Below are positions 7,613 through 63,627 of a stretch of 64,000 nt of DNA, piece after piece. The DNA is taken from IMG/VR virus record IMGVR_UViG_3300042564_004235; one strand, given 5' to 3'. The translations under genes were made by a program, and so were the position numbers. The notes below the pieces were generated by a model. It ran no database searches. It was given only the letters and a program-made list of their open reading frames with translations, and had not been told where the DNA came from. Every line of letters starts with the position of its first letter. The stretch's first letter is position 1. The DNA is from a virus. Its lineage: Duplodnaviria; Heunggongvirae; Uroviricota; Caudoviricetes.

Positions 7613-8005
7613 ATGATAATTCAATTAACAGAATCGCAACTAATAAATGTAATTAAAAATGTTACTAATAATAACAATTATATATATGAAGATATATATG
7701 GATCTGTTGAGGTAACCAAATTTAAAGACAATAATTTTTTAAATGAGGCAGAATACCAAGGAAGAAAAGTACAACTTGGTAAAATAATGCAAGGAGACAT
7801 TAAAAAATTCAAAGTCTATGTAAAAAACGACAAAGGAAAGGTTGTTAAAGTAAACTTTGGTTTTGGTGGTAAATCAGCTAAAGGTAAAAGGATGGTCATA
7901 AAGAAAAACAATCCTGAAAGAAGAAGATCTTTCAGAGCAAGACATAATTGTGATAATCCTGGACCAAGATGGAAACCAAGATATTGGGCATGTAGAACAT
8001 GGTAA
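7613..8005 (+). CDS. leader-family protein with basic C-terminus
   Basis: N-terminus MIIQLTESQLINVIKNV matches the shared [16 protein letters not shown]-like leader. C-terminus is K/R-rich (RRRSFRARHNCDNPGPRWKPRYW). Confidence 0.55.
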   Translation: MIIQLTESQLINVIKNVTNNNNYIYEDIYGSVEVTKFKDNNFLNEAEYQGRKVQLGKIMQGDIKKFKVYVKNDKGKVVKVNFGFGGKSAKGKRMVIKKNNPERRRSFRARHNCDNPGPRWKPRYWACRTW

Positions 8006-8031
8006 TAAAATAAATAAATAAATAAAACAAA

Positions 8032-8562
8032 ATGAGTAAAAGTTATAGTAAAATTAGACACATGCAAGAATCCAACCAAAGATTGGAGAATAATTTTTTA
8101 AATGAACAAAACGCAAATCTTGCTGGATTAAAGGCAAGAGTTGGTACTGGAATTAAAAACATTTTCACAAAATCTGAAAATGACATGTCACCAAGAATTG
8201 AAGCGGCGTTTGCTAGAGTAACCGCAAAAGGAAATCAATTGAGAAATGATTTAGCGGAATTTAGAGCCGATTATCAAAAATTATATACAGATAGAAAAGT
8301 TTATTTAGATAATGCGGTTGCAAAATTAAAAGCAAAAGGAAAGGCAAATGCCGGAAAAGTTGAACAAAGATTAGCATCACTAGATCAAAATTTTAATAAT
8401 ATCCAAGCAAAAATTGCAGAATTGGATAAAGTTATTTATGATGCTTTCTACACACAAAAGGGTCTGTTGTTACCAAACCCCGACGAATCTATTGAAGGTG
8501 GTAGTGAAGGTGGTGCTGAAGAAGGTGGATCTGAAGAAGAAGGAACTCAAGAATTACAATAA
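8032..8562 (+). CDS. hypothetical coiled-coil protein
   Basis: Heptad-like composition. C-terminal GGSEGGAEEGGSEEEG low-complexity tail. Confidence 0.5.
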   Translation: MSKSYSKIRHMQESNQRLENNFLNEQNANLAGLKARVGTGIKNIFTKSENDMSPRIEAAFARVTAKGNQLRNDLAEFRADYQKLYTDRKVYLDNAVAKLKAKGKANAGKVEQRLASLDQNFNNIQAKIAELDKVIYDAFYTQKGLLLPNPDESIEGGSEGGAEEGGSEEEGTQELQ

Positions 8563-8570
8563 TATAATAT

Positions 8571-8870
8571 ATGAGTAAAATTATTATAACAGAAGAACAA
8601 CTTGAGAGAATGGTAAAAATTCTTAAAGAAAACCATGAGGAAGGTTCTTATATGGCTAAACAACAATTATTTACAATTGCGACTTTAGCTTATAAGATGT
8701 GGGAAATGATGGAAGAAGGTGAAGAACTTGAAGATTGGATGGAGACAAAAATTGCTCAATCTGAACAATCAATCACCGCAGTAGTTAAATCATACATGTA
8801 CGGAGAAGTTGAAGATAGACTAAAAGGAACGGCAGGTCTTGACTTAGGTGGTCTTATTATTGGTACATAA
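8571..8870 (+). CDS. leader-family small acidic protein
   Basis: N-terminus MSKIIITEEQLERMVKIL is a leader variant. Confidence 0.5.
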   Translation: MSKIIITEEQLERMVKILKENHEEGSYMAKQQLFTIATLAYKMWEMMEEGEELEDWMETKIAQSEQSITAVVKSYMYGEVEDRLKGTAGLDLGGLIIGT

Positions 8871-8891
8871 AAAAACAATATATAAATTAAT

Positions 8892-8926
8892 CCCCCTTTC
8901 TTAGTTGACTGGGGGTTTTTATTTTT
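8892..8926 (+). terminator. rho-independent terminator
   Basis: ccccctttcttagttgactggggg followed by tttttattttt. Confidence 0.55.
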
Positions 8927-9130
8927 GTATTATTATTAAAAAAAGTTATGTACGTAATTATAAAACACATTAAAAAAATAAACAAAAAAAGAGTTCCTGT
9001 AACACTATTAGATAGTCAAGGTGAGATTTGGGAATTTGAAACTGAAGACGAGGCCGAAGAAATGAAAAATATTTTCCAAACCAACTCAGATTCTGGACAC
9101 GTTTACGAAGTTAAAAAGATCTAATAATTT

Positions 9131-9202
9131 GGTTCCGTGGTGAAAGGGATATCACAGTAGATTTCTAATCTTCTATTCCTGGTTCGAGTCCAGGCGGGAC
9201 TA
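9131..9202 (+). tRNA. tRNA-Arg (anticodon TCT), second copy
   Basis: Cloverleaf parts: acceptor GGTTCCG/CGGGACT, D-arm GTGA..TCAC, anticodon arm GTAGA-tttCTaa-TCTTC (one T:T mismatch), T-arm CCTGG-TTCGAGT-CCAGG. Overlaps the 3' end of the minus-strand HNH gene. Confidence 0.55.
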
Positions 9203-9719
9203 CTATTTTAGCGTGTACTTCTCTATGACAGTTTGCACAAACAAGAACACACTTGTCCAACTCAGATTTTACTATATCGTTAAATGAATACCTTTTTAAA
9301 CTGGATAAATTAAAATCTTTTTGTTTCGGATCTGTATGGTGGAATTCTAACGCACCTGTATACTTATCATACCCACATATTTGACAAGAACCACCTTTAT
9401 AATCAACCATTTGTTTTTTAAGTTTTTGCATTCTATTTAAAGACTGATCAGACGTACAAATTTTACAGTATGTTGATGAAAATTCAACCCCTCTACGTTT
9501 ATAGAACTGATCGGAAGGTAAGACCAACTTACATTTAGGACATTTTCTTTCAGGATTAACTCCTTTTTTCTCATTATATTTAAACTGGACATGCTTAGAC
9601 TCCAAACTATTTTTTTTAGCCCAATACCTAACAGTGGTTAATGATTTACCTGTTTCTTTACTAATTTGATTAAAAGATTTACCATCTTCAATAAATTTTT
9701 CTAACTCTTCTTTTTTCAT
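9165..9719 (-). CDS. HNH homing endonuclease with N-terminal HTH
   Basis: HTH-like SFNQISKETGKSLTTVRYWAKKN. HNH motif LEFHHTDPKQK...CVLVCANCHREVH. Last ~12 codons overlap tRNA-Arg on the opposite strand. Confidence 0.7.
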   Translation of the reverse strand: MKKEELEKFIEDGKSFNQISKETGKSLTTVRYWAKKNSLESKHVQFKYNEKKGVNPERKCPKCKLVLPSDQFYKRRGVEFSSTYCKICTSDQSLNRMQKLKKQMVDYKGGSCQICGYDKYTGALEFHHTDPKQKDFNLSSLKRYSFNDIVKSELDKCVLVCANCHREVHAKIVVPPGLEPGIED

Positions 9720-9919
9720 AGTTTAATGGATTATATTATATAAATATCCAACTAAACTAAAAAAGTTGATTATAATAAAAAAAATATTTATATTTTTAAT
9801 ATGGAAGAAATCTTTGAACAATTACACCAAGAATTTATTAATTCAGAAGAATTTATAAAATATCTTAAAGAACTTGACGAATATTCAGAAAAATATGTAT
9901 CTTTGTAAAAATAAACAAA

Positions 9920-10219
9920 ATGAACAAAGAACTTGTCTCCCTATTTTTCTCAATGACTCACGAATCTGACGAACTACTTGAAGTATTCAATAAGAAACAA
10001 CTATTAGATTTTTACATCAATGGATGTGAATTAAGACTTCGTATGGAAGGACGTTTGGAGAATTTTGAAAAGTTCAATAAAGAAACGGGAGTTGAGTTCA
10101 GCGCTTTGATCTCAAACAAATTTCACTTAGCAAAACAACTTCACGTATTAAAAATAGCCTTAGAAAAACTTGGAGTTAAAGGTTTAGAAGAAGATCAATA
10201 CGCAATGTTAAATAATTAA
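9920..10219 (+). CDS. hypothetical protein
   Basis: 99-aa ORF. A -7 box tatctttgtaaaaa sits ~12 nt upstream of the ATG. Confidence 0.5.
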   Translation: MNKELVSLFFSMTHESDELLEVFNKKQLLDFYINGCELRLRMEGRLENFEKFNKETGVEFSALISNKFHLAKQLHVLKIALEKLGVKGLEEDQYAMLNN

Positions 10220-10509
10220 TGAAATCATTTAAAGACATAGAATTTAAACCACATTCTTTTGGTGAGGGTGTACACGGACTATTATTTTTCCCAAATGGTT
10301 ATGGGGTGTCTGTTGTTAGATATAAAAACCCAATATCCAAAAGTTTTTCTTCCTACACATCAAATGATAGTGAATGGGAAGTTGCGATAATTTATGGTAA
10401 TAAAAAAGATTGGGAAATATCTTACAACACACATATTACTAATGACGTACTAGGACATTTAACTGAAGGTGAGGTTGATTGGGTTATGATTCAAGTTCAA
10501 GAACTATAA
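10219..10509 (+). CDS. hypothetical protein
   Basis: 96-aa ORF, start overlaps previous stop (TAATG). Confidence 0.5.
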   Translation: MKSFKDIEFKPHSFGEGVHGLLFFPNGYGVSVVRYKNPISKSFSSYTSNDSEWEVAIIYGNKKDWEISYNTHITNDVLGHLTEGEVDWVMIQVQEL

Positions 10510-10620
10510 GATATTTATAGATAACCTCTCAGGGATTTTGTTATTTTTACCCTATTGTCTAATACTCGGCCGTAAAAGCAATAAAGAAAAATTAACTCGG
10601 TAGTTGAGAATAACAAAGAA

Positions 10621-10680
10621 AATCACATGGTGTAATTGGTTAGCACAAAAATTGGTGTAGGTTTGAATCCTACTGTGATT
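10621..10680 (+). ncRNA. truncated tRNA-like element (no anticodon arm)
   Basis: Perfect 7-bp acceptor AATCACA/TGTGATT, canonical D-arm GTGT-AATTGGTTA-GCAC and T-arm GTAGG-TTTGAAT-CCTAC. Only ~10 nt lie where the anticodon arm and variable loop should be. Confidence 0.3.
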
Positions 10681-10709
10681 TCTTTTATCTTTTCCTATAT
10701 TTATTACAT

Positions 10710-11666
10710 ATGGAATTTAGACAGATATATTCACTTGCAAAAACTTTAGCCAATTTAGCCGAGTCCGAATTAAGTGATAAAGCAATAACAAGAACTAAAA
10801 TAAAACAATTGGCATCAAGTGACCATTTTGGTCAATTAATCATGTCAAAAGCACCAACAACTGCAGATAAACTTAAAATCATTATCACATCATGGTTTAT
10901 AATTAATAAGCCAAGACTTAAACCTGAAGACATCAATAGAATTATTAATAATCTTTATGTTTTAACAGTTGATATATATGATGAAATGGGTTATAAAAGT
11001 GAAACATGTGACGACTGTGCTGGTGATGGGTATTATGATTGTTCTAGTTGTGGTGGTAGTGGTGAACAAGATTGTAGATATTGTGATGGTGAAGGAACTG
11101 AAGAATGTTATGATTGTAGCGGTGAAGGATCTCAAGAGTGTAGGTATTGTGATGGTAAAGGAACTGAAATTGAAACAGAAGAAGATGATGAAGGGGACGA
11201 AGTTGAAGTTGAGGTAGAATGTGTTCATTGCGATGGTGAAGGTGCCGAAAGATGTGATTCTTGTGGTGGACAAGGAAATTTTAATTGTGGTACTTGTGAA
11301 GGTAGTGGTACTGAAAGTTGTGATTCTTGTGATGGAAATGGACACGAAGATTGTGATTATTGTGGTGGAAGTGGAGAAGTTGATAGTTATAATTATTATT
11401 ACAATATTGAAAGGGTTGATTATTTAATTCTTGGAAAAAGTTTAGAAAAATATATTGATAGACCAATAGAAAAAGATTTTTTTGATGATATTGAAAATGA
11501 AGATCCTTCTTTTGATTACTATATGATATTAAAATCAAATAACTATATGAGTGAAGAAGATGTTGATGATACAAGAGAACAATATGGTATGGAAGATAAT
11601 TTTGTAATTATTCAAGATATTAATAAACTCGAAGAACTTAGTATTAGAGTTCATGGACTTTCTTAA
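10710..11666 (+). CDS. Cys-rich repeat protein (CxxCxGxG repeats, DnaJ zinc-finger-like)
   Basis: At least 12 tandem CxxC(x)GxG motifs (CDDCAGDGYYDCSSCGGSGEQDCRYCDGEGTEECYDCSGEG...). Repetitive at DNA level. Acidic C-terminal half. Confidence 0.55.
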   Translation: MEFRQIYSLAKTLANLAESELSDKAITRTKIKQLASSDHFGQLIMSKAPTTADKLKIIITSWFIINKPRLKPEDINRIINNLYVLTVDIYDEMGYKSETCDDCAGDGYYDCSSCGGSGEQDCRYCDGEGTEECYDCSGEGSQECRYCDGKGTEIETEEDDEGDEVEVEVECVHCDGEGAERCDSCGGQGNFNCGTCEGSGTESCDSCDGNGHEDCDYCGGSGEVDSYNYYYNIERVDYLILGKSLEKYIDRPIEKDFFDDIENEDPSFDYYMILKSNNYMSEEDVDDTREQYGMEDNFVIIQDINKLEELSIRVHGLS

Positions 11667-11696
11667 CCATTAACATATTTATATAATAAAAAAATA

Positions 11697-11948
11697 ATGA
11701 AAAAAATAATTAGACTTACAGAATCAGATTTGGCAAGAATTGTTAGAAAGACATTAAAAGAAGATAAGGATAAAAATCCACTTTATAATGATATAAAAGA
11801 TATATTATGGGATTCATATGAATCTCAAGAATCTAAAGTATTTATATTAAGACAAATCGCTGATGAAATAGAAGGTGATATGGATTTAAGAAGTGACGTT
11901 TCAAAAAGATGGTCAAAAGAAAAGGAAGGACCGATAAATAGATTTTAA
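11697..11948 (+). CDS. leader-family small protein
   Basis: N-terminus [22 protein letters not shown]. Confidence 0.55.
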
Positions 11949-11956
11949 TAAAAAAT

Positions 11957-12649
11957 ATGAAAAAAATAATAAGACTTACAGAATCAGATTTAACAAGAAT
12001 TGTTAGACGAACAATAAATGAAATGGAGGATGAAGAAGACTATGGAACCATGAGAGGTAGATTTTTTGACGATGAGGATGAAGGCGACGAAGAGTGGGGT
12101 GAAACCGATATGGGTGAAGAAGAACTTCAAGATTTAATTGAAGAAGCAAGAGATTTTCTTGAAAATGAATGTGGATATGATTTACACGATATTAATTTAA
12201 TGGGCGAGGAAGATATTGTTGATGCTTTATATGATGAAGGTAATGATAATTTGGCTAACAATATTGAAAGTTTAATGGAAAAAGAAGGTTTTTATAATGC
12301 CGATGAGGACGAACCATACGATTCAATTGGAGGACACTCTGTTAATGATTTAAAGAAAGCATTTGCAAAAACAAAAGGAAGAGATGAAGAATTAGGTGAA
12401 GGGTTTGATGATTTTATTACCAAAAAAAGATTCAAAGACTACAACCCAAGAGAATTTAGAACAATTAAAAAAGATGATTACAAAAGAAATTTAAGACCAG
12501 GAATGAGAGACTTTGAAGGTACGGAATTAATGGGGTCGGAAGAAGAACCATTTGACGAATATAAAGATTTAAGTATGTATAATCCATATTATGATTCAGA
12601 TTTTGATGATGATGATTTTGAAGATTTTGATGACGAAGAATTTGTATAA
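11957..12649 (+). CDS. leader-family highly acidic protein
   Basis: N-terminus [22 protein letters not shown], then very D/E-rich with C-terminal [16 protein letters not shown]. Confidence 0.55.
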
Positions 12650-12885
12650 AAAAATAATAAAAACACTTGTCAATTAAAAAAAAATACCTATATTTGTAGG
12701 GTAATTAAAACTTTTAGAAAAAACTATATATTTATAACAAGATGAGAACAACTAATAAACATATGAACATTTGTAACCCGAGCATTCAGTGGTCGTTTAA
12801 CGTGTATCGTACGCTTAAGTCACATAATAGGGCATTTTCATTTATGAGTTGATAAAGATTAACAAAAAATATAAAAGAAATATAA

Positions 12886-12917
12886 GACCCGAACTCAAAA
12901 CAGTTCGGGTTTTTTTA
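12886..12917 (+). terminator. rho-independent terminator
   Basis: gacccgaactcaaaacagttcgggtc hairpin followed by ttttttt. Confidence 0.6.
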
Positions 12918-12930
12918 TACCCAAAAATTT

Positions 12931-13003
12931 GGTTCCTTAGTATAGTTTGGTAATATCCCGGCTTTGTAACCCGGAGTCATCAGTTCGAACCTGATAGGAA
13001 CCT
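12931..13003 (+). tRNA. tRNA-Thr (TGT)
   Basis: Acceptor GGTTCCT/AGGAACC is perfect. D-arm GTAT-agtttggta-ATAT. Anticodon arm CCGGC-tTTGTaa-CCCGG has one C:C mismatch. T-arm ATCAG-TTCGAAC-CTGAT. Confidence 0.55.
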
Positions 13004-13043
13004 CAAAAAAAGAAAAAGTTCTTTGACATATTGGCTTCATAAT

Positions 13044-13115
13044 TCTCCCCTCGTCTAATTGGCAGGACACCTGGTTTTGGACCAGAGAATCAAGGTTCGA
13101 GACCTTGGGGGAGAT
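13044..13115 (+). tRNA. tRNA-Gln (TTG)
   Basis: Acceptor TCTCCCC/GGGGAGA, D-arm GTCT..GGAC, anticodon loop ttTTGga, T-arm CAAGG-TTCGAGA-CCTTG. Preceded by gttctttgacata. Confidence 0.6.
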
Positions 13116-13211
13116 CAATAAGGAAGATGAATCACAGCGGCCTGTGACCCCGTCTTGAAAACGGGCGGTACCGAAAGGTATTGGGATCGACACCTACTTC
13201 TTCCTCTATAA

Positions 13212-13286
13212 CGGGATGTGGACTAATTGGTAAGTCGCCACTTTTGGGAAGTGGACATCATCCAGGTTCGAGTCCTGGTATCCCGA
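13212..13286 (+). tRNA. tRNA-Pro (TGG)
   Basis: Acceptor CGGGATG/TATCCCG, D-arm GACT-aattggta-AGTC, anticodon arm CCACT-ttTGGga-AGTGG, T-arm CCAGG-TTCGAGT-CCTGG. Confidence 0.7.
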
Positions 13287-13344
13287 CTAATAATAAACAA
13301 ATAAAAATAAGTGTTATGGAAAGTGACAAGTATGACAAACAGAA

Positions 13345-13419
13345 GATCTCGTAGCTCAGTTGGTTTAGAGCACTCCACTTTTAATGGAGGGGTCGTGAGT
13401 TCGAGCCTCACCGGGATCA
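13345..13419 (+). tRNA. tRNA-Lys (TTT)
   Basis: Acceptor GATCTCG/CGGGATC, D-arm GCTC..GAGC, anticodon arm CTCCA-ctTTTaa-TGGAG, T-arm GTGAG-TTCGAGC-CTCAC. Confidence 0.75.
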
Positions 13420-13424
13420 CAAAA

Positions 13425-13460
13425 AAATTTGGTAGATTAAAAAAAAGTATTATCTTTGTA
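13425..13460 (+). promoter_or_regulatory. Bacteroidetes-type promoter (TTTG at -33, tatcTTTG at -7)
   Basis: aaaaaaatttggtagattaaaaaaaagtattatctttgta immediately before ATG 13463. Near-identical module at 18585-18625 and 19835-19872. Confidence 0.5.
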
Positions 13461-13462
13461 AT

Positions 13463-13678
13463 ATGAAAACAGTAAAAGAAATTAAGAAAGGACTACCAAA
13501 AGGAATGGTTAAAGTTGGTGAAGAATGTGAAAGAGCTATTGTACGATTAATAAAACAAGGACAAACTCAAGAACAAGCAACAAACACCGTTCTAAGACTT
13601 TTGAATGATAGTAAACCTTATTTAGAACAAGGAATGTACTCTACCACAATTGAAAGTATTAAAATGATAACATCATAA
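13463..13678 (+). CDS. hypothetical small protein inside the tRNA island
   Basis: 71-aa ORF with promoter module directly upstream. Confidence 0.45.
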   Translation: MKTVKEIKKGLPKGMVKVGEECERAIVRLIKQGQTQEQATNTVLRLLNDSKPYLEQGMYSTTIESIKMITS

Positions 13679-13681
13679 AAC

Positions 13682-13755
13682 ACACTCTTAGCTCAGATGG
13701 TAGTAGCGGTAGTATTACAAACTACAGGTCACAGGTTCGACCCCTGTAGGGTGTA
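13682..13755 (+). tRNA. tRNA-Val (TAC)
   Basis: Acceptor ACACTCT/AGGGTGT (one G:U), anticodon arm GTAGT-atTACaa-ACTAC perfect, T-arm ACAGG-TTCGACC-CCTGT. Confidence 0.7.
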
Positions 13756-13765
13756 CAAAAAATAA

Positions 13766-13851
13766 GGGAGAGTTGAGCAATTGGTTGGCTCAGCAGACTG
13801 TAAATCTGTCGTCGTGAGACCTTGGGGGTTCGAGTCCCTCCTCTCCCACCA
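13766..13851 (+). tRNA. tRNA-Tyr (GTA), type II, encoded CCA
   Basis: Acceptor GGGAGAG/CTCTCCC, anticodon loop ctGTAaa, 15-nt variable arm, T-arm GGGGG-TTCGAGT-CCCTC, 3' ACCA encoded. Confidence 0.75.
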
Positions 13852-13855
13852 CAAT

Positions 13856-13928
13856 GGACAAGTAGCTCAATTGGTAGAGCAATCGGCTGTTAACCGATAG
13901 GTTACAGGATCGTACCCTGTCTTGTCCG
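13856..13928 (+). tRNA. tRNA-Asn (GTT)
   Basis: Acceptor GGACAAG/CTTGTCC perfect, D-arm GCTC-aattggta-GAGC, anticodon arm ATCGG-ctGTTaa-CCGAT, T-loop ATCGTAC. Confidence 0.75.
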
Positions 13929-14004
13929 CAACCACCGAGAAGTGACTGACGAGTCCGCTGACGAGCTGAGGGGGTGGTTAAGAAATACCCCTAAATACGT
14001 ACCA

Positions 14005-14077
14005 GCTCACGTAGCTCAATTGGTAGAGCGCCGATCTGATACGTCGGAGGTAATGGGATCGTAACCCGTCGTGAACA
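14005..14077 (+). tRNA. tRNA-Ile (GAT)
   Basis: Acceptor GCTCACG/CGTGAAC (one C:A mismatch), canonical D-arm, anticodon arm CCGAT-ctGATac-GTCGG. Confidence 0.6.
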
Positions 14078-14135
14078 CAAAAAGGGGAATAACTAGTGTG
14101 GGTGCCCCAACTACTGCAGGAGTACCACACTCTAC

Positions 14136-14221
14136 GGAAGATAAACCTTGATGGCGATAGGGTCCGCCTGCTAAGCGAGATGTACCCGTAAGGGTGTTTG
14201 GTTCGATTCCAATGTCTTCCG
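14136..14221 (+). tRNA. tRNA-Ser (GCT), type II
   Basis: Acceptor GGAAGAT/GTCTTCC, anticodon arm TCCGC-ctGCTaa-GCGAG, long variable arm tgtACCCgtaaGGGTg, T-loop TTCGATT. Confidence 0.55.
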
Positions 14222-14226
14222 CAAAT

Positions 14227-14296
14227 GCCGATAGGAGAGGTTTCCGGTCCGGGCTCATATCCTGGATGTCATTGGGTTCGATACCCTTTATCGGTA
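14227..14296 (+). tRNA. tRNA-like, probable CAT anticodon (Met/Ile2), degenerate
   Basis: Acceptor GCCGATA/TATCGGT and anticodon arm CCGGG-ctCATat-CCTGG fold. D-arm and T-stem are weak (T-stem 3 GC pairs plus two U:U). Only 70 nt. Confidence 0.35.
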
Positions 14297-14302
14297 CTAT
14301 AT

Positions 14303-14376
14303 GGTGTATGTAGCTCAGTTGGTAGAGTGTCGTTCTGTGAAAGCGGAGGTCGTGGGATCGTGACCCATCATACACA
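14303..14376 (+). tRNA. tRNA-His (GTG) with G-1
   Basis: Extra 5' G before the perfect acceptor GTGTATG/CATACAC. Canonical D-arm. Anticodon arm TCGTT-ctGTGaa-AGCGG (2 G:U). Confidence 0.75.
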
Positions 14377-14382
14377 CAACAT

Positions 14383-14454
14383 ACCTTCGTAGCTTAATGG
14401 AAAAGCCTTAGAATACGAATCTAATGATTGGGAGTTCGACCCTCTCCGAAGGTA
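14383..14454 (+). tRNA. tRNA-Arg (ACG)
   Basis: Acceptor ACCTTCG/CGAAGGT perfect, D-stem GCTT/AAGC, anticodon arm TTAGA-atACGaa-TCTAA perfect, T-arm GGGAG-TTCGACC-CTCTC. Confidence 0.75.
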
Positions 14455-14457
14455 CAA

Positions 14458-14632
14458 AAGATGATAAGAAGCGTAGAATGACAGACGTGGAGAGACGTGT
14501 CGCAAGGGTACAAACTAAGGAAAGGTATTCAATCTTAATTGTATTGATGTAATAACCCAACTCTCTAATGGTGTGTGAAGCTTTGATAGAAGTAGCGGGA
14601 TTCCTGATAAAGTCATTCATCATCTTTTATTC
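14458..14632 (+). ncRNA. candidate structured RNA element in tRNA island
   Basis: About 175 nt non-coding between two tRNAs. Closed by an inverted repeat aaagatgat ... atcatcttt and ending in a T-run. No ORF. Confidence 0.2.
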
Positions 14633-14704
14633 GCCCCTTTCGTATAATGGAAGTACAACACTCTTCTAAGGTGTCAGGTCGGAGTTCGAGTCTCTGAGGG
14701 GGTA
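14633..14704 (+). tRNA. tRNA-Arg (TCT)
   Basis: Acceptor GCCCCTT/AGGGGGT (2 G:U), D-arm GTAT-aatggaa-GTAC, anticodon arm ACACT-ctTCTaa-GGTGT, T-arm CGGAG-TTCGAGT-CTCTG. Confidence 0.7.
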
Positions 14705-14742
14705 CGGATCCGATGTCGGTCCCGAGCTAGGTCGGGCAATTT

Positions 14743-14814
14743 GCGTCTCTGGTGTAATAGGTAGCATGATGGATTCCAAACCCATCGGTCAGGGTTCGAG
14801 ACCTTGGGGACGCG
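14743..14814 (+). tRNA. tRNA-Trp (CCA)
   Basis: Acceptor GCGTCTC/GGGACGC, anticodon arm ATGGA-ttCCAaa-CCCAT (one A:C), T-arm CAGGG-TTCGAGA-CCTTG. Confidence 0.65.
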
Positions 14815-14879
14815 CTAAAAATTTAATTTTGTTAATTAAAAAAAAATACTTATATTTGTTTTATTAAATATTAAAAAAT

Positions 14880-15314
14880 ATGACTTTAAAAATTTCTAAC
14901 ATACAAAAACAAAAATTTTATGATTTAGGACATAAATTACCAAAATGTATAAATCCTGGATGCAATAACAATGTTGCTGTAAGAAATTGGTCCAATTGGT
15001 CTTTTAAATCTGAATGTCCACGTTGCCAAAAGGCAAGAAAGAAGGGTGTTGTTATTGAGGGTATCACTATACATAAAAAAAAATATTGTGAAAATATAGA
15101 CGGTCATTTAGGTTTTATGTGTCCTGTTCCTAGTATAGAAAATTGGAAAGGGTTTGAGGTTGGATGTTTAGATTTAGATCACATAGATGGAGACCACAAT
15201 AACAATTCAGTAGAAAATGTTAAAACTTATTGTAAATTGTGTCACAATAGAAAAAGTATTGAGAGCGGTGACTGCTCTAATAAAAAAGATTCGGCAAGAA
15301 CATTTAACACATGA
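14880..15314 (+). CDS. HNH endonuclease
   Basis: Zn-ribbon Cys pairs CINPGC...CPRC. HNH core GCLDLDHIDGDHNNNSVENVKTYCKLCHNRK. Stop overlaps the start of the MTase gene in ATGA. Confidence 0.7.
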   Translation: MTLKISNIQKQKFYDLGHKLPKCINPGCNNNVAVRNWSNWSFKSECPRCQKARKKGVVIEGITIHKKKYCENIDGHLGFMCPVPSIENWKGFEVGCLDLDHIDGDHNNNSVENVKTYCKLCHNRKSIESGDCSNKKDSARTFNT

Positions 15315-16096
15315 AACAAAAAATTATATGTAAAGATTGTCTTTTAGGTATTAAAGACATTAAAAATGAAACAATACACTTAACTTGGACATCACCACCA
15401 TACTTTAATGCAAAATCTTATAGTACATGGGAAACATATGATGATTATTTATCGTTTCTTAAAGAAGTGTTTTCTGAAGTGTTTAGAGTAACTAAAGAAG
15501 GTAGAATGTGTGTTGTTAATTTATCTCCGGTAATAATACCTAGAGAAAATAGGAATTGTGAGAGTAAAAGATTACCAATACCCTTTGATTTTTTTCCAAT
15601 AATGAAAGAAATTGGTTGGAAATATTTAGATGATATTGTGTGGGTAAAACCTGAAGGAGCGGCAATAAATAGAAATGGAGGGTTTTACCAACATAGAAAA
15701 CCAGTTGCATATAAACCAAATTTAGTGTCTGAAGTAATATTTGTTTTTCAAAAACCGGCAAGTTTTCTTATAGATAAAGTTGTTAGATCTTATAAAGGTG
15801 AAATTTTAGAAAAATCACTGGTTAATGAAACTTATGAGAGGAGTAATGTTTGGACGATAAACCCCGAAACTAAATCAAAACATTTAGCACCATACCCTGA
15901 AGAGTTATCAGATAAAATTATAAAATATTATTCTTTTGTTGGTGATATTGTTTTAGATCCATTTTTAGGTTCGGGAACAACATTATTATCTTGTGAAAAA
16001 TTAGATAGGTTAGGTATTGGGTTTGATATACATGAGGAATACTGTGAAATGTGTACTGATAGAATTAATGATTGGGTTAATAAACATAAAAAATAA
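15311..16096 (+). CDS. DNA methyltransferase (beta-class N4C/N6A), second copy
   Basis: Motif IV LTWTSPPYFNA and motif I VLDPFLGSGTTLLSCEKLDRLGIGFDIHEEY. Confidence 0.85.
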   Translation: MKQKIICKDCLLGIKDIKNETIHLTWTSPPYFNAKSYSTWETYDDYLSFLKEVFSEVFRVTKEGRMCVVNLSPVIIPRENRNCESKRLPIPFDFFPIMKEIGWKYLDDIVWVKPEGAAINRNGGFYQHRKPVAYKPNLVSEVIFVFQKPASFLIDKVVRSYKGEILEKSLVNETYERSNVWTINPETKSKHLAPYPEELSDKIIKYYSFVGDIVLDPFLGSGTTLLSCEKLDRLGIGFDIHEEYCEMCTDRINDWVNKHKK

Positions 16097-16172
16097 GGAA
16101 CTATGGTGTAAGTATGGTGTGTCACGCTGGTCTGAAAAACCAGAGGTTGCGGTTCGACTCCGCATGGTTCCA
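16097..16172 (+). tRNA. tRNA-Phe (GAA)
   Basis: Acceptor GGAACTA/TGGTTCC, anticodon arm CTGGT-ctGAAaa-ACCAG perfect, T-arm TGCGG-TTCGACT-CCGCA. D-region is unusually long, with a direct 7-nt duplication atggtgt. Confidence 0.6.
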
Positions 16173-16188
16173 CAAAAAAATAGAAATA

Positions 16189-16644
16189 ATGAACAGAGTA
16201 TTTAGAACGGTTAACGGTGAAACAATTCCTGATGTGGTAAAACATACCTTAGATGTTCTAAAAGAATGTCCATGGGTGGAAGTACACATCGGTACAGACT
16301 CACAAAACCACAGAAGAAGTACCGTGTATGTTACGGTAATAGCTTATAGGTATGGGAATCGTGGTGTCCACTACATACTACATAAACAGAAAGTGAAAAA
16401 AATTAAAGACAAATGGACACGTCTTTGGAATGAGGCCGATTATTCAATTGAGGTTGCGGAATGGTTAACCAAAAAAGTAAAGGTACAAGTTGAGATTGAC
16501 TTAGATTATAATAGTCAAGAAAAACATTTCAGTTCAAAATTGGTTCAACCTGTTGTTGGGTGGGCAACATCTTTGGGGTATAAAACAAACATTAAACCCG
16601 ACAACCAAATTGCAACAAAAGCGGCAGATCACCACTGCCGTTAA
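16189..16644 (+). CDS. hypothetical protein
   Basis: Track ORF 16114.. runs through tRNA-Phe; first plausible ATG is 16189 (MNRVFRTVNGE). Contains a HIGTDSQ motif of unknown significance. Confidence 0.45.
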   Translation: MNRVFRTVNGETIPDVVKHTLDVLKECPWVEVHIGTDSQNHRRSTVYVTVIAYRYGNRGVHYILHKQKVKKIKDKWTRLWNEADYSIEVAEWLTKKVKVQVEIDLDYNSQEKHFSSKLVQPVVGWATSLGYKTNIKPDNQIATKAADHHCR

Positions 16645-16649
16645 TATAT

Positions 16650-16721
16650 GCTCAGGTGTCTGATAGGTAAAGTCCCGGTCTGCAAAACCGTGGTATGTGG
16701 GTTCAAATCCCTCCCTGAGCT
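16650..16721 (+). tRNA. tRNA-Cys (GCA)
   Basis: Acceptor GCTCAGG/CCTGAGC perfect, anticodon arm CCGGT-ctGCAaa-ACCGT, T-arm GTGGG-TTCAAAT-CCCTC. D-arm irregular. Confidence 0.6.
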
Positions 16722-16730
16722 CAAAAACAG

Positions 16731-16811
16731 GCCTTCGTGGTGGAACGGTAGACACATCCGGCTTAGACCCGGATTCCGAAAGGAGTGAGAGTTCGAGTCT
16801 CTCCGGAGGTA
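16731..16811 (+). tRNA. tRNA-Leu (TAG), type II
   Basis: Acceptor GCCTTCG/CGGAGGT, anticodon arm TCCGG-ctTAGac-CCGGA perfect, 13-nt variable arm, T-arm GAGAG-TTCGAGT-CTCTC. Confidence 0.75.
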
Positions 16812-16851
16812 CAAATCTTTATTATCAACATATTTATATTAAAATGTTGAT

Positions 16852-17964
16852 ATGAAAAGAATTATTAGACTAACAGAATCTGATTTAACAAGAATAGTTA
16901 AACAAGTTATTCAAGAACAATCAGAACACGTTAAAAATTTATATAAATCGTGGGCCAATAAAAGGAGTGGGAATCCCGAAAAAGCATTATCAATTATTGA
17001 TGATGTTTTTAAATACCAAAAACAATTATCAAAAAAAGATTTTGCTCAATATTCTTCATACGAAGAATTGGTTGGTGATTTAAATAGAATTAAACAAGCC
17101 GCCAAATCAGAGGATGCCACAAAAATTTATGAAGATAAAGATTTGTTGGTATTAAAGGCAAACACACACGAAGCAAGTTGTAAATATGGTGCAGGATCTA
17201 AATGGTGTACAACCGCAAAAGATGATAGTTCATATTGGAGAAGACATAATGATACTGGAACTGAGTTCTTTTGGATATTCAAAAATAAACCACAAGATGA
17301 TCCGAATCATAAATTTTCTTATCACGTAAAAATAACTGGAGAGCCTGATTGGTGTAATGCGGTTAATAATTGTATGTCAACTTCAAGATTATCTGAAGAG
17401 TCTTATCCAAAGAAACATCCAAGATATACTGAAATTATTGAAAAATTACAAGAAATTCATGATGCTAGAGGATTGAAAGCACCAGAAAAAAGTGAAAGAC
17501 AACGACTTATTAATCAAATTGTAGATTGGGTTAGTGAAAATTTTGATGAAATTGAACCTATAATCCTTGATAATGATACTATTAATGATATTGTAAACAA
17601 TTGTACTTCATTTTTTTTAGATAGTGATGTATATGATTATTTACCATTTGATATAGATTTAGATGATGAAGACGCGACAGATGAATTTATCAGTAATTTA
17701 GAAAAAGAAATAAGAAACAATTTTGTACCAGATGTTGATGGGTCATCATTTGAAATTATTCATGGTTTATCGTGGTTAATTAATGATAATTTTGAAGACC
17801 CAATTGATTACTTAAACGCACACACACCGGAAGAGGTAATTAATGAATTAGGTGAAATGGATTCAAGAGGTCTTGAAGAAATTATTAATGAAGTACTTTA
17901 TGGTGGAATTACAGATCAATTAGTAGATTTCACTCTATATTACGGAGATAATTATCAACCATAA
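16852..17964 (+). CDS. leader-family protein (370 aa)
   Basis: N-terminus [22 protein letters not shown]. Acidic C-terminal half. Confidence 0.55.
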   Translation: MKRIIRLTESDLTRIVKQVIQEQSEHVKNLYKSWANKRSGNPEKALSIIDDVFKYQKQLSKKDFAQYSSYEELVGDLNRIKQAAKSEDATKIYEDKDLLVLKANTHEASCKYGAGSKWCTTAKDDSSYWRRHNDTGTEFFWIFKNKPQDDPNHKFSYHVKITGEPDWCNAVNNCMSTSRLSEESYPKKHPRYTEIIEKLQEIHDARGLKAPEKSERQRLINQIVDWVSENFDEIEPIILDNDTINDIVNNCTSFFLDSDVYDYLPFDIDLDDEDATDEFISNLEKEIRNNFVPDVDGSSFEIIHGLSWLINDNFEDPIDYLNAHTPEEVINELGEMDSRGLEEIINEVLYGGITDQLVDFTLYYGDNYQP

Positions 17965-18267
17965 TATTTGATTAATTAAAAAATAAGTTATATATTTGTA
18001 TTGTGATTGGTTGATGACTCCCACCGGTAAAATAGGTTGAGTCTCCCACACAAAAAACTGGGTTTGGCCACCCGGAGGTTAGCTAACCAAAAATTAACGA
18101 GGGTTAAGGTATGTGTCCCCATTATACACGATTTTGGGTTTTGATACAAGGAAGGTTGGACACTAATTCGTGATTAAATGTGTTCTTGTAGTTAATTTTA
18201 TTTTAAAAAAACTTGACACTTTTGAAAAGTAGCATATATTTATAAGACAAAACAAATAAAAACGCAA

Positions 18268-18342
18268 ATGAAAAATTTACATATCATACTATTAGGCGGA
18301 TTGGCGATAGCTGAGGATCGTTCCTTTAGGGAGGTGGTATGA
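18268..18342 (+). CDS. tiny hydrophobic peptide ORF (24 aa), speculative
   Basis: Hand translation MKNLHIILLGGLAIAEDRSFREVV. Followed by a strong terminator at 18367-18398. Confidence 0.2.
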   Translation: MKNLHIILLGGLAIAEDRSFREVV

Positions 18343-18366
18343 TAATTTAATACATAATAAATTTTG

Positions 18367-18398
18367 AAACCCATCTCCAAAAGAGGTGGGTTTTTTTG
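18367..18398 (+). terminator. rho-independent terminator
   Basis: aaacccatctccaaaagaggtgggttt hairpin followed by tttttt. Confidence 0.65.
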
Positions 18399-18419
18399 TT
18401 TAAGGGTATTGTGGAATTA

Positions 18420-18468
18420 AAAGTTTTTTGTAACTTTGTAAAACAAAAGAGGTTCTTTGACATAATGG
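18420..18468 (+). promoter_or_regulatory. promoter module (taacTTTGtaaaacaa ... ggttctttgacata) upstream of tRNA-Leu
   Basis: Same TTTGTAAAACAA plus GGTTCTTTGA(C/A)AT module as at 5764, 18612 and 13018. Confidence 0.45.
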
Positions 18469-18481
18469 TGATGAATAAAAT

Positions 18482-18565
18482 GGTTCGGTGGTGGAATTGG
18501 TATACACGACAGGTTTAAGCCCTGTTGCCCTTTGAGGCTTGTGGGTTCGAGTCCCACTCGGACTA
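18482..18565 (+). tRNA. tRNA-Leu (TAA), type II
   Basis: Acceptor GGTTCGG/TCGGACT (3 G:U), D-stem GTG/CAC, anticodon arm ACAGG-ttTAAgc-CCTGT perfect, 15-nt variable arm, T-arm GTGGG-TTCGAGT-CCCAC. Confidence 0.6.
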
Positions 18566-18584
18566 CAGAAAAAAAGTTTAAAAA

Positions 18585-18625
18585 AGATTTGGCAGATTAA
18601 AAAAGATTATATATCTTTGTAAAAC
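18585..18625 (+). promoter_or_regulatory. Bacteroidetes-type promoter (aaaaagtttaaaaaagatttggcagatt ... tatcTTTGtaaaacaa)
   Basis: Near-identical to the modules at 13425 and 19835. Confidence 0.5.
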
Positions 18626-18759
18626 AAATAAGGAAAAAAGGTTCTTTGAAATATTAAAAATATGTGGTTGTAAGAAACGGGAAACTCGTAAAGTGCATTA
18701 ACCTGTTGACTCAAGATGGTGAAACGAGAGTTTGAGTCAACTACTAAACTACAAATTAT

Positions 18760-18833
18760 GGTGCGGTAGCTCAGTTGGTAGAGCAAGGAGACGGAAACCT
18801 CCTGTGCCGATGGTTCGATTCCATTCCCACACC
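18760..18833 (+). tRNA. non-canonical tRNA-like (8-nt anticodon loop), possible pseudogene
   Basis: Canonical D-arm GCTC-agttggta-GAGC and T-arm GATGG-TTCGATT-CCATT. The only stable anticodon helix AGGAG/CTCCT leaves an 8-nt loop acggaaac. Acceptor GGTGCGG/CCACACC has a C:A mismatch and needs one extra nt after the T-stem. Confidence 0.35.
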
Positions 18834-18842
18834 ACAAACATA

Positions 18843-18925
18843 GCGGGATAGTCAGTAGTTGGTAGCTAGCGAGGCTCATAACCTTGTGTCGAAAGGCCCC
18901 GGTGGTTCGAGTCCACCTCCCGCAA
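18843..18925 (+). tRNA. tRNA-like, CAT-anticodon hairpin, irregular
   Basis: Clean T-arm GGTGG-TTCGAGT-CCACC and hairpin CGAGG-ctCATaa-CCTTG. D-region and a 14-nt stretch before the T-arm do not fit a standard cloverleaf. Confidence 0.3.
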
Positions 18926-18928
18926 CAA

Positions 18929-19007
18929 GTGTTGTTCCCTTGAGAAAGGAATGTAGGAGTAACAAATATAGACGTTAACAACACCGAGGAACTCAACCTC
19001 AAATTTG
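18929..19007. repeat. repeat A (structured element, copy 1 of 2)
   Basis: gtgttgttcccttgagaaaggaa ... aacaacac ... caacctcaaattt. The 8-bp helix GTGTTGTT/AACAACAC is preserved in copy B at 20255-20357 despite different internal length. Confidence 0.5.
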
Positions 19008-19087: not shown

Positions 19088-19303
19088 CGGGAGTGTAGAC
19101 AGTAGAGTTCTGTCAGAGAGAAGAGGGTGACACGCACTTAAAATAGGGGTCACAAGGCATCTGACCGTTTAGTAGTTTTGGGCGATAAAAACTAACGTTT
19201 TGTGGAGATAGTTTAACGTATAAACTTACACCCGTGTTGTTAGTAGGTTTGATCACCCCATTCACGTTAAGTGACGAAACTACCCAAGGAGTAGTCACAC
19301 TTC

Positions 19304-60944: not shown

Positions 60945-61328
60945 ATGAAAAGAATTTTTTTAACTGAAGAAGAAAAAGACGACCTATCAAAAAAACATGA
61001 AGATATTGACAGAAAACTTATGAACTTTCTTTTAAGAAGGTATAATGTAGAAAAAAGAACATTACCAAAAACTCCTTTTTTTGATCCCGATGACGACGAT
61101 TTGCCACCAATTAGTTGGACTGAAGTTAATTTTGTGGATTTTCCTGGATATGGACTTTCAAGTTATATGAGTAGAAAAGATATGGAGTGGAGATTACTTA
61201 ATATGTTAGAAGAGGCCGAAAAACTTAATACTGATGATTTCAGAGGTAATAGAGGATTTGATGCTGATAGACAAAAAAAGATGAAAACAATAAGAACATT
61301 TTTAAATTTTGTATTACCTGTAAAATGA
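60945..61328 (+). CDS. hypothetical protein (weak leader-like N-terminus MKRIFLTEEEKDDL)
   Basis: 127-aa ORF. Confidence 0.4.
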   Translation: MKRIFLTEEEKDDLSKKHEDIDRKLMNFLLRRYNVEKRTLPKTPFFDPDDDDLPPISWTEVNFVDFPGYGLSSYMSRKDMEWRLLNMLEEAEKLNTDDFRGNRGFDADRQKKMKTIRTFLNFVLPVK

Positions 61329-61726
61329 AAATAGAAGAAAATATCAAAATAAAAAAATTACTTATTAATATGTTTGAAAACCAAGAGTTTGAAACAACAT
61401 ATCAAGATGAGGTAACTTCATGGAATGAAGAAAATTTTTATGAAGATTACGTTTTCAAGTATTATATAGAGGTAGGTAAAGTGTTAGGTGAAGGAACAAT
61501 GACCGTTGCTTCTATTAACATTATTATAACTGAATTCACCGTTGATGGTGAAGATAAGATGTTAATTTGGAAAGAAGATAATTATGACGAACATCTTTGG
61601 TATATAGTAACATTAGAAAATGAAATATATGAAGATAAATTAAAAGATATTCCAATATCAACTTATCTAACTTGTTATGCTGAAGATGAATATGAAAATT
61701 TACCTTTTGAACAAAAAAACTTATAA
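61325..61726 (+). CDS. hypothetical acidic protein
   Basis: 133-aa ORF. Confidence 0.4.
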   Translation: MKIEENIKIKKLLINMFENQEFETTYQDEVTSWNEENFYEDYVFKYYIEVGKVLGEGTMTVASINIIITEFTVDGEDKMLIWKEDNYDEHLWYIVTLENEIYEDKLKDIPISTYLTCYAEDEYENLPFEQKNL

Positions 61727-61743
61727 TTAAATCAAAAAATATT

Positions 61744-62097
61744 ATGGCACATCCAATTCTACACGCAAAAAGTTCTGCCAAAAAGTTTGGAGGAATTTGG
61801 GAAGATTATATTCATCTACATAATTGGCTTGACGAAACCAAAGGATGGTACGGACATTCGTATCATAGAATGTGGAGACACCACTCAGAAGGGATATTTG
61901 AGATGGAACAAAGGTTTGGTCCTGAGTTTAAAAATAGTGACGGGAAAACCGTTTATACTCGTTATGTTGGTGAACAACATGTAAAAGAAGACTGTGATGG
62001 ATACATACCATCAGCCAAAGAATGGTTCATGATTGTTGAAAATAAACAACGACCTATATGGGCAACTAAAACTCAAAAGTTAGAGTTTGAAGATTAG
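61744..62097 (+). CDS. hypothetical protein
   Basis: 117-aa ORF. Confidence 0.4.
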   Translation: MAHPILHAKSSAKKFGGIWEDYIHLHNWLDETKGWYGHSYHRMWRHHSEGIFEMEQRFGPEFKNSDGKTVYTRYVGEQHVKEDCDGYIPSAKEWFMIVENKQRPIWATKTQKLEFED

Positions 62098-62111
62098 AAG
62101 TATTTATAGTT

Positions 62112-62858
62112 ATGAGTTCATTACAAGAAAAACTACAAAAAGAATTAACTCCTGAATTAAAAAGAGAATTTAGGAAGTATTGTTTATTATTACAAGGGTA
62201 TTCGGACTCCAATAGTTGGGTATATGAGTGTGACTTTAGATTAACTGACAACATTTATTGGAATGATTTTGTTTTTTATAGTACAAAACAAGGTGTTGAA
62301 ATGTTACCACCAATAGAAGAATATTTTAAAAAAGTAATCAAATACTATATTGATACCGATGAACTATGGGAACACATTGAAAGAGAACCTGAAACATTAG
62401 TAGAAACGGGATGGTTACATTTTACTATTTTTCCAACACAAAACAAATTACAAATTGAAATGGAGTATGACTACTACGATAATATGGGAACGACACACGA
62501 AGAAAGTATCGCCAATATGATTGAGTTATATTCAAAAGGTGATGAGGACAACACACAAATACAATTATTAAAGTGGGAAAAACAAGGAGCTATCTTTACA
62601 GTAAAATACGAAGGGTCTGAATGGGGTGATTATATTGATGATAGTTGCAGTAGTAATATTGGAATCACAAAAACACCAGAAATAATTGAACATTTAAGTG
62701 AAATGATGATTGAAGAATATGAAGAGGGTTATCATTTAGAAAATGATGGAGGAAGTGGAGAAATTAAATTTGATTTTAAAACGGATACTGTTTTAATGGA
62801 ACATACACAATATAATACGTCTTCTACTGAAGTAGAATTAGCAGAATTAAATTTTTAA
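62112..62858 (+). CDS. hypothetical acidic protein
   Basis: 248-aa D/E-rich ORF. Confidence 0.45.
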   Translation: MSSLQEKLQKELTPELKREFRKYCLLLQGYSDSNSWVYECDFRLTDNIYWNDFVFYSTKQGVEMLPPIEEYFKKVIKYYIDTDELWEHIEREPETLVETGWLHFTIFPTQNKLQIEMEYDYYDNMGTTHEESIANMIELYSKGDEDNTQIQLLKWEKQGAIFTVKYEGSEWGDYIDDSCSSNIGITKTPEIIEHLSEMMIEEYEEGYHLENDGGSGEIKFDFKTDTVLMEHTQYNTSSTEVELAELNF

Positions 62859-62862
62859 TTGA

Positions 62863-63627
62863 ATGAAAACAATAAAATTAACTGAGGAACAAAAACAAAA
62901 ACTAGTAAGACCAAATGGTTATATTGCTGCAGTATTTGGCGATGGAATAGAATGGAGTGTATATTGTTATTCCGACTATGGATTAGAGATGGATCAATTA
63001 AATGGACCATTACCTGCGGGAGATAACGGATGGGATAGAAGAAACGAACTTGATCGAATTGATAGAGATCCTGGTTTTGATATCATATGTGATACTGCAG
63101 AAAAAATTGTGAAAAATTCTGAAGATGACTTAGTTGATGAATTGTCTTGTGATGATTGTACAGGGAATGGTTATTTATATGTAAATTATGATGGAGAAAC
63201 AATGACTTTTACCACTAGAGTTGAAAAATATGTAAGAGATTCACAAGATAGTGAATACATGAAAACTTTTGATGAGTGGGCCAGTACACAACCACAATAC
63301 CCATGGCAAACTTTTACATACCTAAAAAAATTAAAAGATCCTAATTTTATTGAAGAATATAAAAATGAAGGTGAAAATGGTGTATTTGAATTAGTTTATA
63401 ATGGTGGAGGAGATAGCGGACAATTTGATGAACCAATAGATATTCCAAGAGATATTGAATATTTGGGTTATGAAATAATAGATGTTTATCATAGTGGTTG
63501 GGAAAATAATGAAGGTGCTGATGGAAGAATTGTGATAGATTTTAATGAAAAAACAATATCACTTTATCACCAACATTATTATGAAGAATCTGAAGAAATA
63601 GAATTAGAAAAATACCAATTTGTATAA
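62863..63627 (+). CDS. hypothetical acidic protein (weak leader-like N-terminus MKTIKLTEEQKQKL)
   Basis: 254-aa D/E-rich ORF. Confidence 0.45.
   Translation: MKTIKLTEEQKQKLVRPNGYIAAVFGDGIEWSVYCYSDYGLEMDQLNGPLPAGDNGWDRRNELDRIDRDPGFDIICDTAEKIVKNSEDDLVDELSCDDCTGNGYLYVNYDGETMTFTTRVEKYVRDSQDSEYMKTFDEWASTQPQYPWQTFTYLKKLKDPNFIEEYKNEGENGVFELVYNGGGDSGQFDEPIDIPRDIEYLGYEIIDVYHSGWENNEGADGRIVIDFNEKTISLYHQHYYEESEEIELEKYQFV

Follow-up and report, generated by a model that had tools for sequence, protein, structure and literature searches.

A modular N-terminal peptide on unrelated proteins of an uncultured T4-related phage lineage: a probable capsid-targeting propeptide

The 64,000 nucleotide (nt) sequence IMGVR_UViG_3300042564_004235 (Caudoviricetes), termed here the window, comes from a large, uncultured, T4-related phage and encodes a short peptide (termed the leader) at the N-terminal end of otherwise unrelated proteins. 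The leader is strictly N-terminal, sharply bounded and modular, selection on it is at the peptide level, and it is found only in viral sequence. It is probably (at roughly 60%) a capsid-targeting, i.e. prohead-core-targeting, propeptide that is removed by a gp21-type protease. By sequence it stands outside the T-even family of capsid-targeting sequences (CTS), yet it appears to work like a member of that family.

Leader sequence, classes and distribution

The same N-terminal peptide was described on unrelated proteins in the initial annotation, and the seven strong members listed there translate as written. A loose core of the peptide, [LIV][TS]E[SEDT][DEQ], has 16 six-frame matches in the window, and 10 of the 16 start 4–6 residues after the initial Met of an open reading frame (ORF). 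With a 6% chance of a position within the first 10 residues, the binomial probability of this N-terminal bias is P = 6e-9. Related loci, i.e. the IMG/VR stretches found with a degenerate DNA pattern for IIRLTESDL[TA]RIV, number more than 118 and lie on contigs of up to 322 kb. The core occurs 247 times in 1.15 Mb of these loci; 244 of the occurrences are N-terminal and 3 are not.

The canonical form (class A) was defined from 191 unique proteins anchored on an invariant Thr-Glu. These display a sharply bounded module of 22 amino acids (aa) that ends in [KN]E. The information content is 3–4 bits per position up to Glu22 and is below 0.5 bit four residues further on, and this boundary holds although positions 17–22 lay outside of the search pattern. 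The conserved block encompasses residues 1–22 in class A and approximately residues 1–15 in a shorter class, A2. The statement that the proteins diverge completely after the peptide also holds: without the leader, 187 proteins fall into 119 BLASTP clusters.

The codons of the leader are mixed. Leu7 is encoded by TTA (75), CTT (47) and CTA (22), Arg18 by CGA (50), CGT (36) and AGA (36), and Ser10 by five codons. Over the 22 leader codons the amino acids are 90–100% fixed while the synonymous sites vary freely, and no conserved block was found in the 60 nt upstream of the leader genes. Selection thus acts on the peptide. Conservation at the nucleic-acid level, e.g. of an enhancer of translation initiation, of a site bound by a regulator or of a recombination site used to shuffle cassettes, might be suspected where genes have no Shine-Dalgarno sequence and start with the A/T-rich ATG AAA AAA ATA ATT, as they do here. 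The leader genes also form tandem arrays (in L024, L043, L062, L106 and L217) that could recombine via the shared 66 nt. Given the free synonymous variation, the unconserved upstream DNA and the absence of the leader from most window genes, an explanation of this type is very unlikely, and any recombination via the leader may be a side effect rather than the selected trait.

The leader DNA pattern has no match in 185,579 species-representative bacterial and archaeal genomes of GTDB. In 50,697 GenBank phages there was likewise no match, whether the query was the DNA, the protein of 11957 or the leader peptide, and no cultured phage with the leader turned up. The leader is not covered by any Pfam or PHROG family, and core strings such as RLTESDL were not found in the published literature. 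The absence of matches in cellular genomes means that no host protein uses the pattern, which argues against a signal recognised by the host. Export or localisation to the envelope or periplasm by host machinery would suit the several cargo proteins that act on peptidoglycan (Phage_lysozyme, LysM, PG_binding_1 and Tae4). However the leader is highly charged, has a mean hydrophobicity of -0.26 and contains no hydrophobic core, no lipobox and no Cys, and thus differs from Sec, Tat and lipoprotein signals. Few of the tails, i.e. the sequences that follow the leader (about 4%), display a transmembrane-like segment, and the lipoprotein-like signals encoded in the window look different, e.g. MKK...LTSC. 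A host export signal is therefore highly improbable.

The only window genes recognised by a position-specific scoring matrix (PSSM) of canonical leaders are 11697, 11957 and 16852, together with 7613 at a lower score. The matrix is too strict for the short class, and class-specific patterns were used instead. Class A2, MKIIITExQ[YF]xxLxE, is N-terminal in 34 unique proteins and found elsewhere once; its members in the window are 8571, 44324 and 49953. Class B has the form MxxLIRKILKE in the window (45905 and 46288). Class D, MKKFLITEEEKxRILxxH, occurs 57 times, always at the N-terminus.

Leaders of classes A, B and C replace one another on orthologous cargo proteins. The conserved body of the 16852 family begins EHVKNLYKSWANK, and in all of the 120 homologs listed, with the exception of one truncated ORF, it is preceded at the N-terminus by a leader of one of these three classes. 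In this family the class B form is MN[IL]RKIILEEI....E and the class C form is MNLNEQINRIKEMMGILNE, class C being found on the 16852 ortholog P0215. Classes A and B likewise swap on the 7613 family, which has class B in L038, and on the YMFFSNLEQ family. Metagenome proteins P0083–P0116 display a further leader variant and a form RLTESQLHRVIKESV...ILKE, both of 26 aa and both ending in I-L-K-E, on other unrelated small proteins.

The leader helix is strongly amphipathic, with a hydrophobic moment (muH) of 0.63–0.70; a value of 0.70 is matched by 0.9% of shuffled sequences. The AlphaFold model of the 16852 protein displays a confident body and a helix at residues 9–22. Leader residues 1–14 and 16–22 have a predicted local distance difference test (pLDDT) score below 50, and the leader is not packed against the body. 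These properties bear on the question of whether the peptide is retained on the mature proteins, i.e. as a coiled-coil or oligomerisation element, or as a membrane- or nucleic-acid-binding helix of a fast-diverging multigene family. The strong amphipathicity of residues 8–22, with a heptad-like hydrophobic pattern, is in keeping with such a role, and the tandem arrays suggest paralog expansion. However a retained helix agrees poorly with the lack of packing on the body in the model, with the fusion of the leader to unrelated folds (lysozyme, LysM, Tae4 and SAM lyase) and with the swapping of different classes on the same ortholog. Neither a strict N-terminal position nor an end in a protease motif is required by it, and retention of the peptide is quite improbable.

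One related locus (L001:10001–12402) displays a leader-only ORF of 31 aa, followed by a gene for a LAGLIDADG endonuclease and then by an ORF of 381 aa. This may be a leader-bearing gene that has been split by a mobile intron.

Cleavage motif, head module and parallels with T4

The internal proteins of phage T4 share only an N-terminal CTS propeptide of 10–19 residues, which docks on the scaffolding core (PMC3012670; PMC9026906). The gp21 protease removes the CTS by cutting after L/I-x-E (PMC9026906), and the internal proteins are ejected and counter host defences (PMC3012670; PMC9026906; PMC5694885).

The leaders end in the same type of motif. In class A, 167 of 190 leaders have [ILVM]xE as their last three residues, precisely where the conserved block stops. 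An L/I-x-E ending is shared by classes A2, B and C and is less uniform in class D. In nearly all full-length members of the 49953 family the leader ends at Glu-Ala, the type of bond present at the classic gp21 site. In addition, the internal L-T-E of the leader is the same tripeptide as that of the T4 gp23 site, ...GSFLTE65↓AEIGG (NC_000866; the arrow marks the scissile bond, here and below where actual or predicted). T4 gp23 loses 65 residues at this site (PDB chain lengths 521 versus 456). The capsid protein of the present lineage displays, at the corresponding place, a conserved ...ENQASFLINE↓A[TS].. immediately ahead of the region that can be aligned to mature gp23. The predicted capsid site I-N-E thus parallels the T4 FLTE↓A, and it equals the commonest leader ending, V-I-N-E.

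A further parallel is displayed by the cargo of 7613. Its domain is also known from cultured phages of Pelagibacter and Roseobacter, and its ortholog in C48C1, a T4-like phage of the Kyanoviridae, starts MKKFKQYIDE↓GCC..., which closely resembles the T4 starts (NC_000866) of IPII and IPIII, MKTYQEFIAE↓A, and of IPI, MKTFKEF...ITE↓A. Only one other ORF in the 150 kb of C48C1 has a T4-type start (MKTFQEF...). The same cargo is thus seen with a T4-type tag in C48C1, itself a T4-type phage, and with a 17–22-aa or class B tag in the present lineage.

A T4-type head module is present in the lineage. T4 gp21, its sequence checked against NC_000866, was used as a BLAST probe and hit locus L070, which encodes a 242-aa protein (L070:5044–5772) that matches the T4 prohead core protease (PDB 5jbl, E = 1.6e-13) and keeps the catalytic His and Ser motifs ELNHP and GISSRG. 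Adjoining it are a very acidic, scaffold-like protein of 515 aa and a 622-aa protein that matches T4 gp23 (E = 1e-27). The order protease-orf71-scaffold-capsid is constant in the 80 loci fetched, and the gp23-type capsid gene is found on more than 600 IMG/VR contigs. The closest capsid proteins from cultured phages are those of Microcystis phage Mel-JY01 (40%) and Flavobacterium phage immuto; those of T-even-like phages are at about 26–31%. Head module and leader genes occur together on two contigs (296 kb and 78 kb). In L070 the protease gene and orf71 are separated by a 16852 ortholog (L070:3890–5035, about 58% identical), an arrangement seen in only one of the 80 head modules. In L138 a leader gene lies inside the head module, between the portal side and the protease.

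In loci L127–L206 a conserved head-module protein of about 238 aa, encoded between portal and protease, starts MKFGxLKSKIExxLxE↓SY. The L-x-E↓S, located 17 residues from its N-terminal end, is conserved, and in T4 the corresponding position is that of the cleaved core proteins gp67 and gp68.

The proposed course of events is as follows. The leader, in which an amphipathic helix follows the short, strand-like MKKIIRL, would dock unrelated small proteins onto the prohead scaffolding core during head assembly. The gp21-type serine protease would then cut after the Glu of the terminal [L/I]-x-E, and probably also after the internal L-T-E, and the mature cargo would be freed inside the head. The cargo would be ejected with the DNA into the next host and would act early there, with muralytic, anti-restriction or host-takeover functions.

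The resemblances to T4 are several. Like the T4 CTS, the leader is short and N-terminal, ends in L/I-x-E and is found on divergent small proteins in variable, non-structural regions. The T4 ip genes also lie outside of the head module, beside a tRNA cluster and a lysozyme gene, as is the case here. T4 shares with the lineage a gp21-family protease, a scaffold and a gp23-family capsid protein, and the T4 tag binds the gp22 core. There are also differences. The leader has 15–22 aa as compared with 10–19 aa in T4, is far more conserved across a broad lineage and has at least four or five interchangeable classes. It is found on about 10% of the genes and in more than 100 families, as compared with a handful in T4, and unlike T4 its cargo is not preferentially basic. 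The initial annotation had likened the peptide to the T4 CTS. This is consistent with the head module, the [L/I]-x-E ends, the virus-only distribution and the C48C1 ortholog; the packaging and processing that it also proposed are inferred from sequence.

A sequence motif, TATTTAT[AT], is located 11–28 nt upstream of the ATG in 18 of 119 window genes, with preferred spacings of 11–12 or 21–28 nt, e.g. upstream of 3703, 7613, 11697, 16852, 22771 and 49953. It precedes 5 of 11 leader genes of the window as compared with 13 of 108 others (P = 0.012), and is also present upstream of the protease and scaffold genes in L127–L206. It looks like a promoter element that would give leaderless or very short-leader mRNAs.

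A number of observations weigh against a capsid-targeting propeptide. The leader displays no similarity to the T-even CTS (MKT[YF][QK]EF...) beyond MK and the terminal IxE. The residue that follows Glu22 in class A (position P1′) is mostly N, Q, E, S or D and not Ala, and the 7613 leader has no terminal Glu. Tagging of about 10% of the window genes would be a very large set if all were packaged. Some cargos are extremely acidic and one is multi-pass membrane-like, unlike the basic internal proteins of T4. Leader genes are rare beside head modules (8 in 1.0 Mb), and no clustering of leader genes with head genes was found except in L070 and L138; the L070 arrangement could be a real insertion or an assembly chimera. 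Because the head module of the window phage itself was not seen, the link of the window to the T4-like lineage rests on shared orthologs and leaders; 10-kb flanks and an exact 40-mer scan, which gave only a 4.4-kb contig, did not reach that module. Finally, TATTTAT[AT] is not specific to late genes.

The leader could instead be a handle for some other partner specified by the phage, i.e. a chaperone, an AAA+ unfoldase, a system that reads it as a tag for timed degradation, or the import apparatus of a phage-built compartment. Modularity, the sharp boundary, the virus-only spread and the detached helix suit any phage-specified docking equally. The window and the related contigs encode DnaJ-like, AAA and ClpB-like proteins, and the approximately 10% of genes that are tagged are among accessory rather than structural genes. 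However this explanation accounts neither for the gp21-type [L/I]-x-E ends and the E↓A of the 49953 family nor for the T4-CTS-like start of the C48C1 ortholog, and no candidate for a receptor that accompanies the leader was found. It is considered unlikely. Rather less likely still is a tag that serves as the address code of an undescribed phage-built destination or machine (a compartment, an unfoldase, a secretion route or timed proteolysis). In an abundant clade of uncultured jumbo phages, about 10% of the proteome would then be marked by the interchangeable codes A, A2, B, C and D.

With respect to the favoured capsid-targeting propeptide, other phages offer comparisons. In the large phages phiKZ, 201phi2-1 and SPN3US, which have many head-internal proteins, these are cut C-terminal to Glu by a gp21-related protease, and several cleavage sites per propeptide are common in giant phages (PMC5694885; PMC9026906). 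The multiple sites parallel the presence of LTE at position 9 and IxE at position 22 in the leader. Unlike the leader, the propeptides of phiKZ-type phages have S/A/G-x-E motifs, are often longer than 100 aa and display no single shared sequence. Here one conserved tag is reused, and the capsid protein and protease of the lineage are closer to those of T4 than to those of phiKZ.

Delivery of proteins from the head is known in P1 (the Dar proteins) and in P22 and T7, where the head carries proteins that counter restriction or breach the envelope and that are delivered along with the DNA. Incorporation in these phages is via specific hierarchies of protein-protein interaction and not via a common cleavable N-terminal tag. 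In encapsulins a short conserved cargo-loading peptide suffices to load diverse cargo into an HK97-fold shell; these peptides are usually C-terminal and uncleaved, and are cellular rather than viral.

If the leader is a capsid-targeting propeptide, it would be a label, readable from sequence, of the injected proteome of very abundant uncultured T4-related large phages. More than 100 families of unknown function would become prime candidates for effectors of anti-defence, host takeover and cell-wall breaching. The T4 CTS principle, so far known in detail only for T-even phages, would reach a distant branch, and the longer, better conserved, multi-class tag would represent a natural experiment on the co-evolution of tag and scaffold. 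The leader might also be of use as a new, portable tag with which foreign proteins could be loaded into the heads of phages.

Leader-bearing genes and their cargo

Three genes of the window have a canonical class A leader at residues 1–22 and share the start MK[KR]IIRLTESDL[AT]RIV... The gene at 11697–11948 (+ strand) encodes 83 aa, with the leader at nt 11697–11762 and a PSSM score of 64.7. It is followed by 11957–12649 (+), which encodes 230 aa with a very acidic tail, has its leader at nt 11957–12022 and scores 72.4; this tail falls in the largest tail cluster (17 members). The third gene, 16852–17964 (+), encodes 370 aa, and its leader at nt 16852–16917 is identified by translation and by the PSSM. 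A near-canonical class A leader, MIIQLTESQLINVIKNV, is found at nt 7613–7663 of 7613–8005 (+), which encodes 130 aa with a basic tail and has a PSSM score of 5.6.

Three further genes have a class A2 leader. 8571–8870 (+) encodes 99 aa and has the leader MSKIIITEEQLERMVKILKE at nt 8571–8630, which matches the pattern and is kept in the orthologs P0093–P0113. The gene at 44324–45904 (− strand) encodes 526 aa with hydrophobic segments; its leader, MMKIIITEEQYKSLINE, is at nt 45854–45904, and its orthologs are P0075, P0076 and P0099. 49953–51185 (+) encodes 410 aa with an invariant HExxH, and its leader MKIILTESQFRILQE at nt 49953–49997 is followed by AVGVPEG.

Further leader genes were absent from the initial annotation. 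Two of these display class B leaders: 45905–46291 (−), of 128 aa, with MKNLIRKILKE at nt 46259–46291, and 46288–46815 (−), with MQRLIRKILKE at nt 46741–46773. The true start of the latter is likely the internal Met at nt 46773. A class C leader, MENLQENINRIKELMLVE, is found at nt 63627–63680 in 63627–64000 (+), which is the 5′ part of a gene of 292 aa. Probably 3703–5442 (+) also belongs here. It encodes 579 aa with a weak DHH match and starts MKRLIKE↓SGIRD. A homolog elsewhere begins with an A2 leader, MKIIITENQLKSLISE, followed directly by SGIRN, and MKRLIKE is probably a mini-leader.

Two genes had been listed as weak carriers of the peptide. One of these, 60945–61328 (+), which encodes 127 aa, is leader-bearing; its N-terminus, MKRIFLTEEEKDDLSKKH, belongs to the separate class D. 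The other, 62863–63627 (+), encodes a DUF6878 protein of 254 aa whose N-terminus, MKTIKLTEEQKQKL, only weakly resembles class D, and its membership in a leader class is doubtful. Because classes A2, B, C and D add to class A, about a dozen of the approximately 119 window genes carry some leader.

The tails have a median length of 129 aa and are mostly soluble. Their pI values display the same distribution as those of neighbouring genes, and no acidic, basic or membrane bias was found. In the initial annotation the acidic members were put forward as possible DNA mimics; taken as a set, the tails are no more acidic than the products of nearby genes. Few known domains are present: PG_binding_1 (two members), Tae4 amidase, LysM, Phage_lysozyme, SAM lyase and DUF6576. 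The leader was found on no replication, nucleotide-metabolism or metabolic enzyme, although replication and nucleotide-metabolism enzymes are common in the same loci. The recognisable domains would fit ejected effectors.

The tandem array of class A2 genes in L217 consists of six genes just 3′ of the window (L217:10068–13552); a seventh A2 gene lies apart, at position 7143. The array is headed by a leader-tagged Phage_lysozyme gene (L217:10068–11036), 6.4 kb past the end of the window. The phage thus encodes two muralytic enzymes, as compared with this tagged lysozyme the other is a leaderless endolysin with PG_binding_1 and GH19 domains, at 25507–26331 of the window.

The HExxH motif of the 49953 family is kept in 120 of 120 homologs, and nearly all full-length members keep a leader of 15 or 20 aa that ends [L/I]xE↓AVGVPEG. 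The HEIMH of 49953 had suggested that this protein is the cognate protease. This is not supported: the gp21-family serine protease present in the lineage is the obvious candidate, and 49953 is itself tagged. Since its own leader ends in LQE↓A, 49953 looks like cargo. Residues H145, E146, H149, E196 and E203 are invariant, which is a gluzincin-like pattern. The protein has no Pfam match, its AlphaFold model does not match a known metalloprotease fold, and on the basis of the model it may represent a new metalloenzyme fold.

General gene content of the window

The window has about 30% G+C and approximately 119 densely spaced genes, nearly all on one strand. No Shine-Dalgarno sequences were found in it. 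There is no near match to the window DNA among the 50,697 GenBank phage records. No structural genes are present in the window or in the 10 kb beyond either end. The recognisable genes are accessory or metabolic, i.e. those for two DNA methylases, thymidylate synthase, an RNA ligase, an AAA ATPase, a Band-7 protein, a PAS histidine kinase and a response regulator, homing endonucleases and the endolysin. The window is thus a non-structural region of a large tailed phage.

The histidine kinase, a membrane protein, is encoded at 22771–24369 and is followed by the response-regulator receiver protein at 24384–24821, and the two form a two-component pair. A cluster of 23 tRNA genes is located at 9131–21682. 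For the last of these positions, 21607–21682, ARAGORN calls an odd four-base anticodon, “ttaa”, with the amino acid undetermined.

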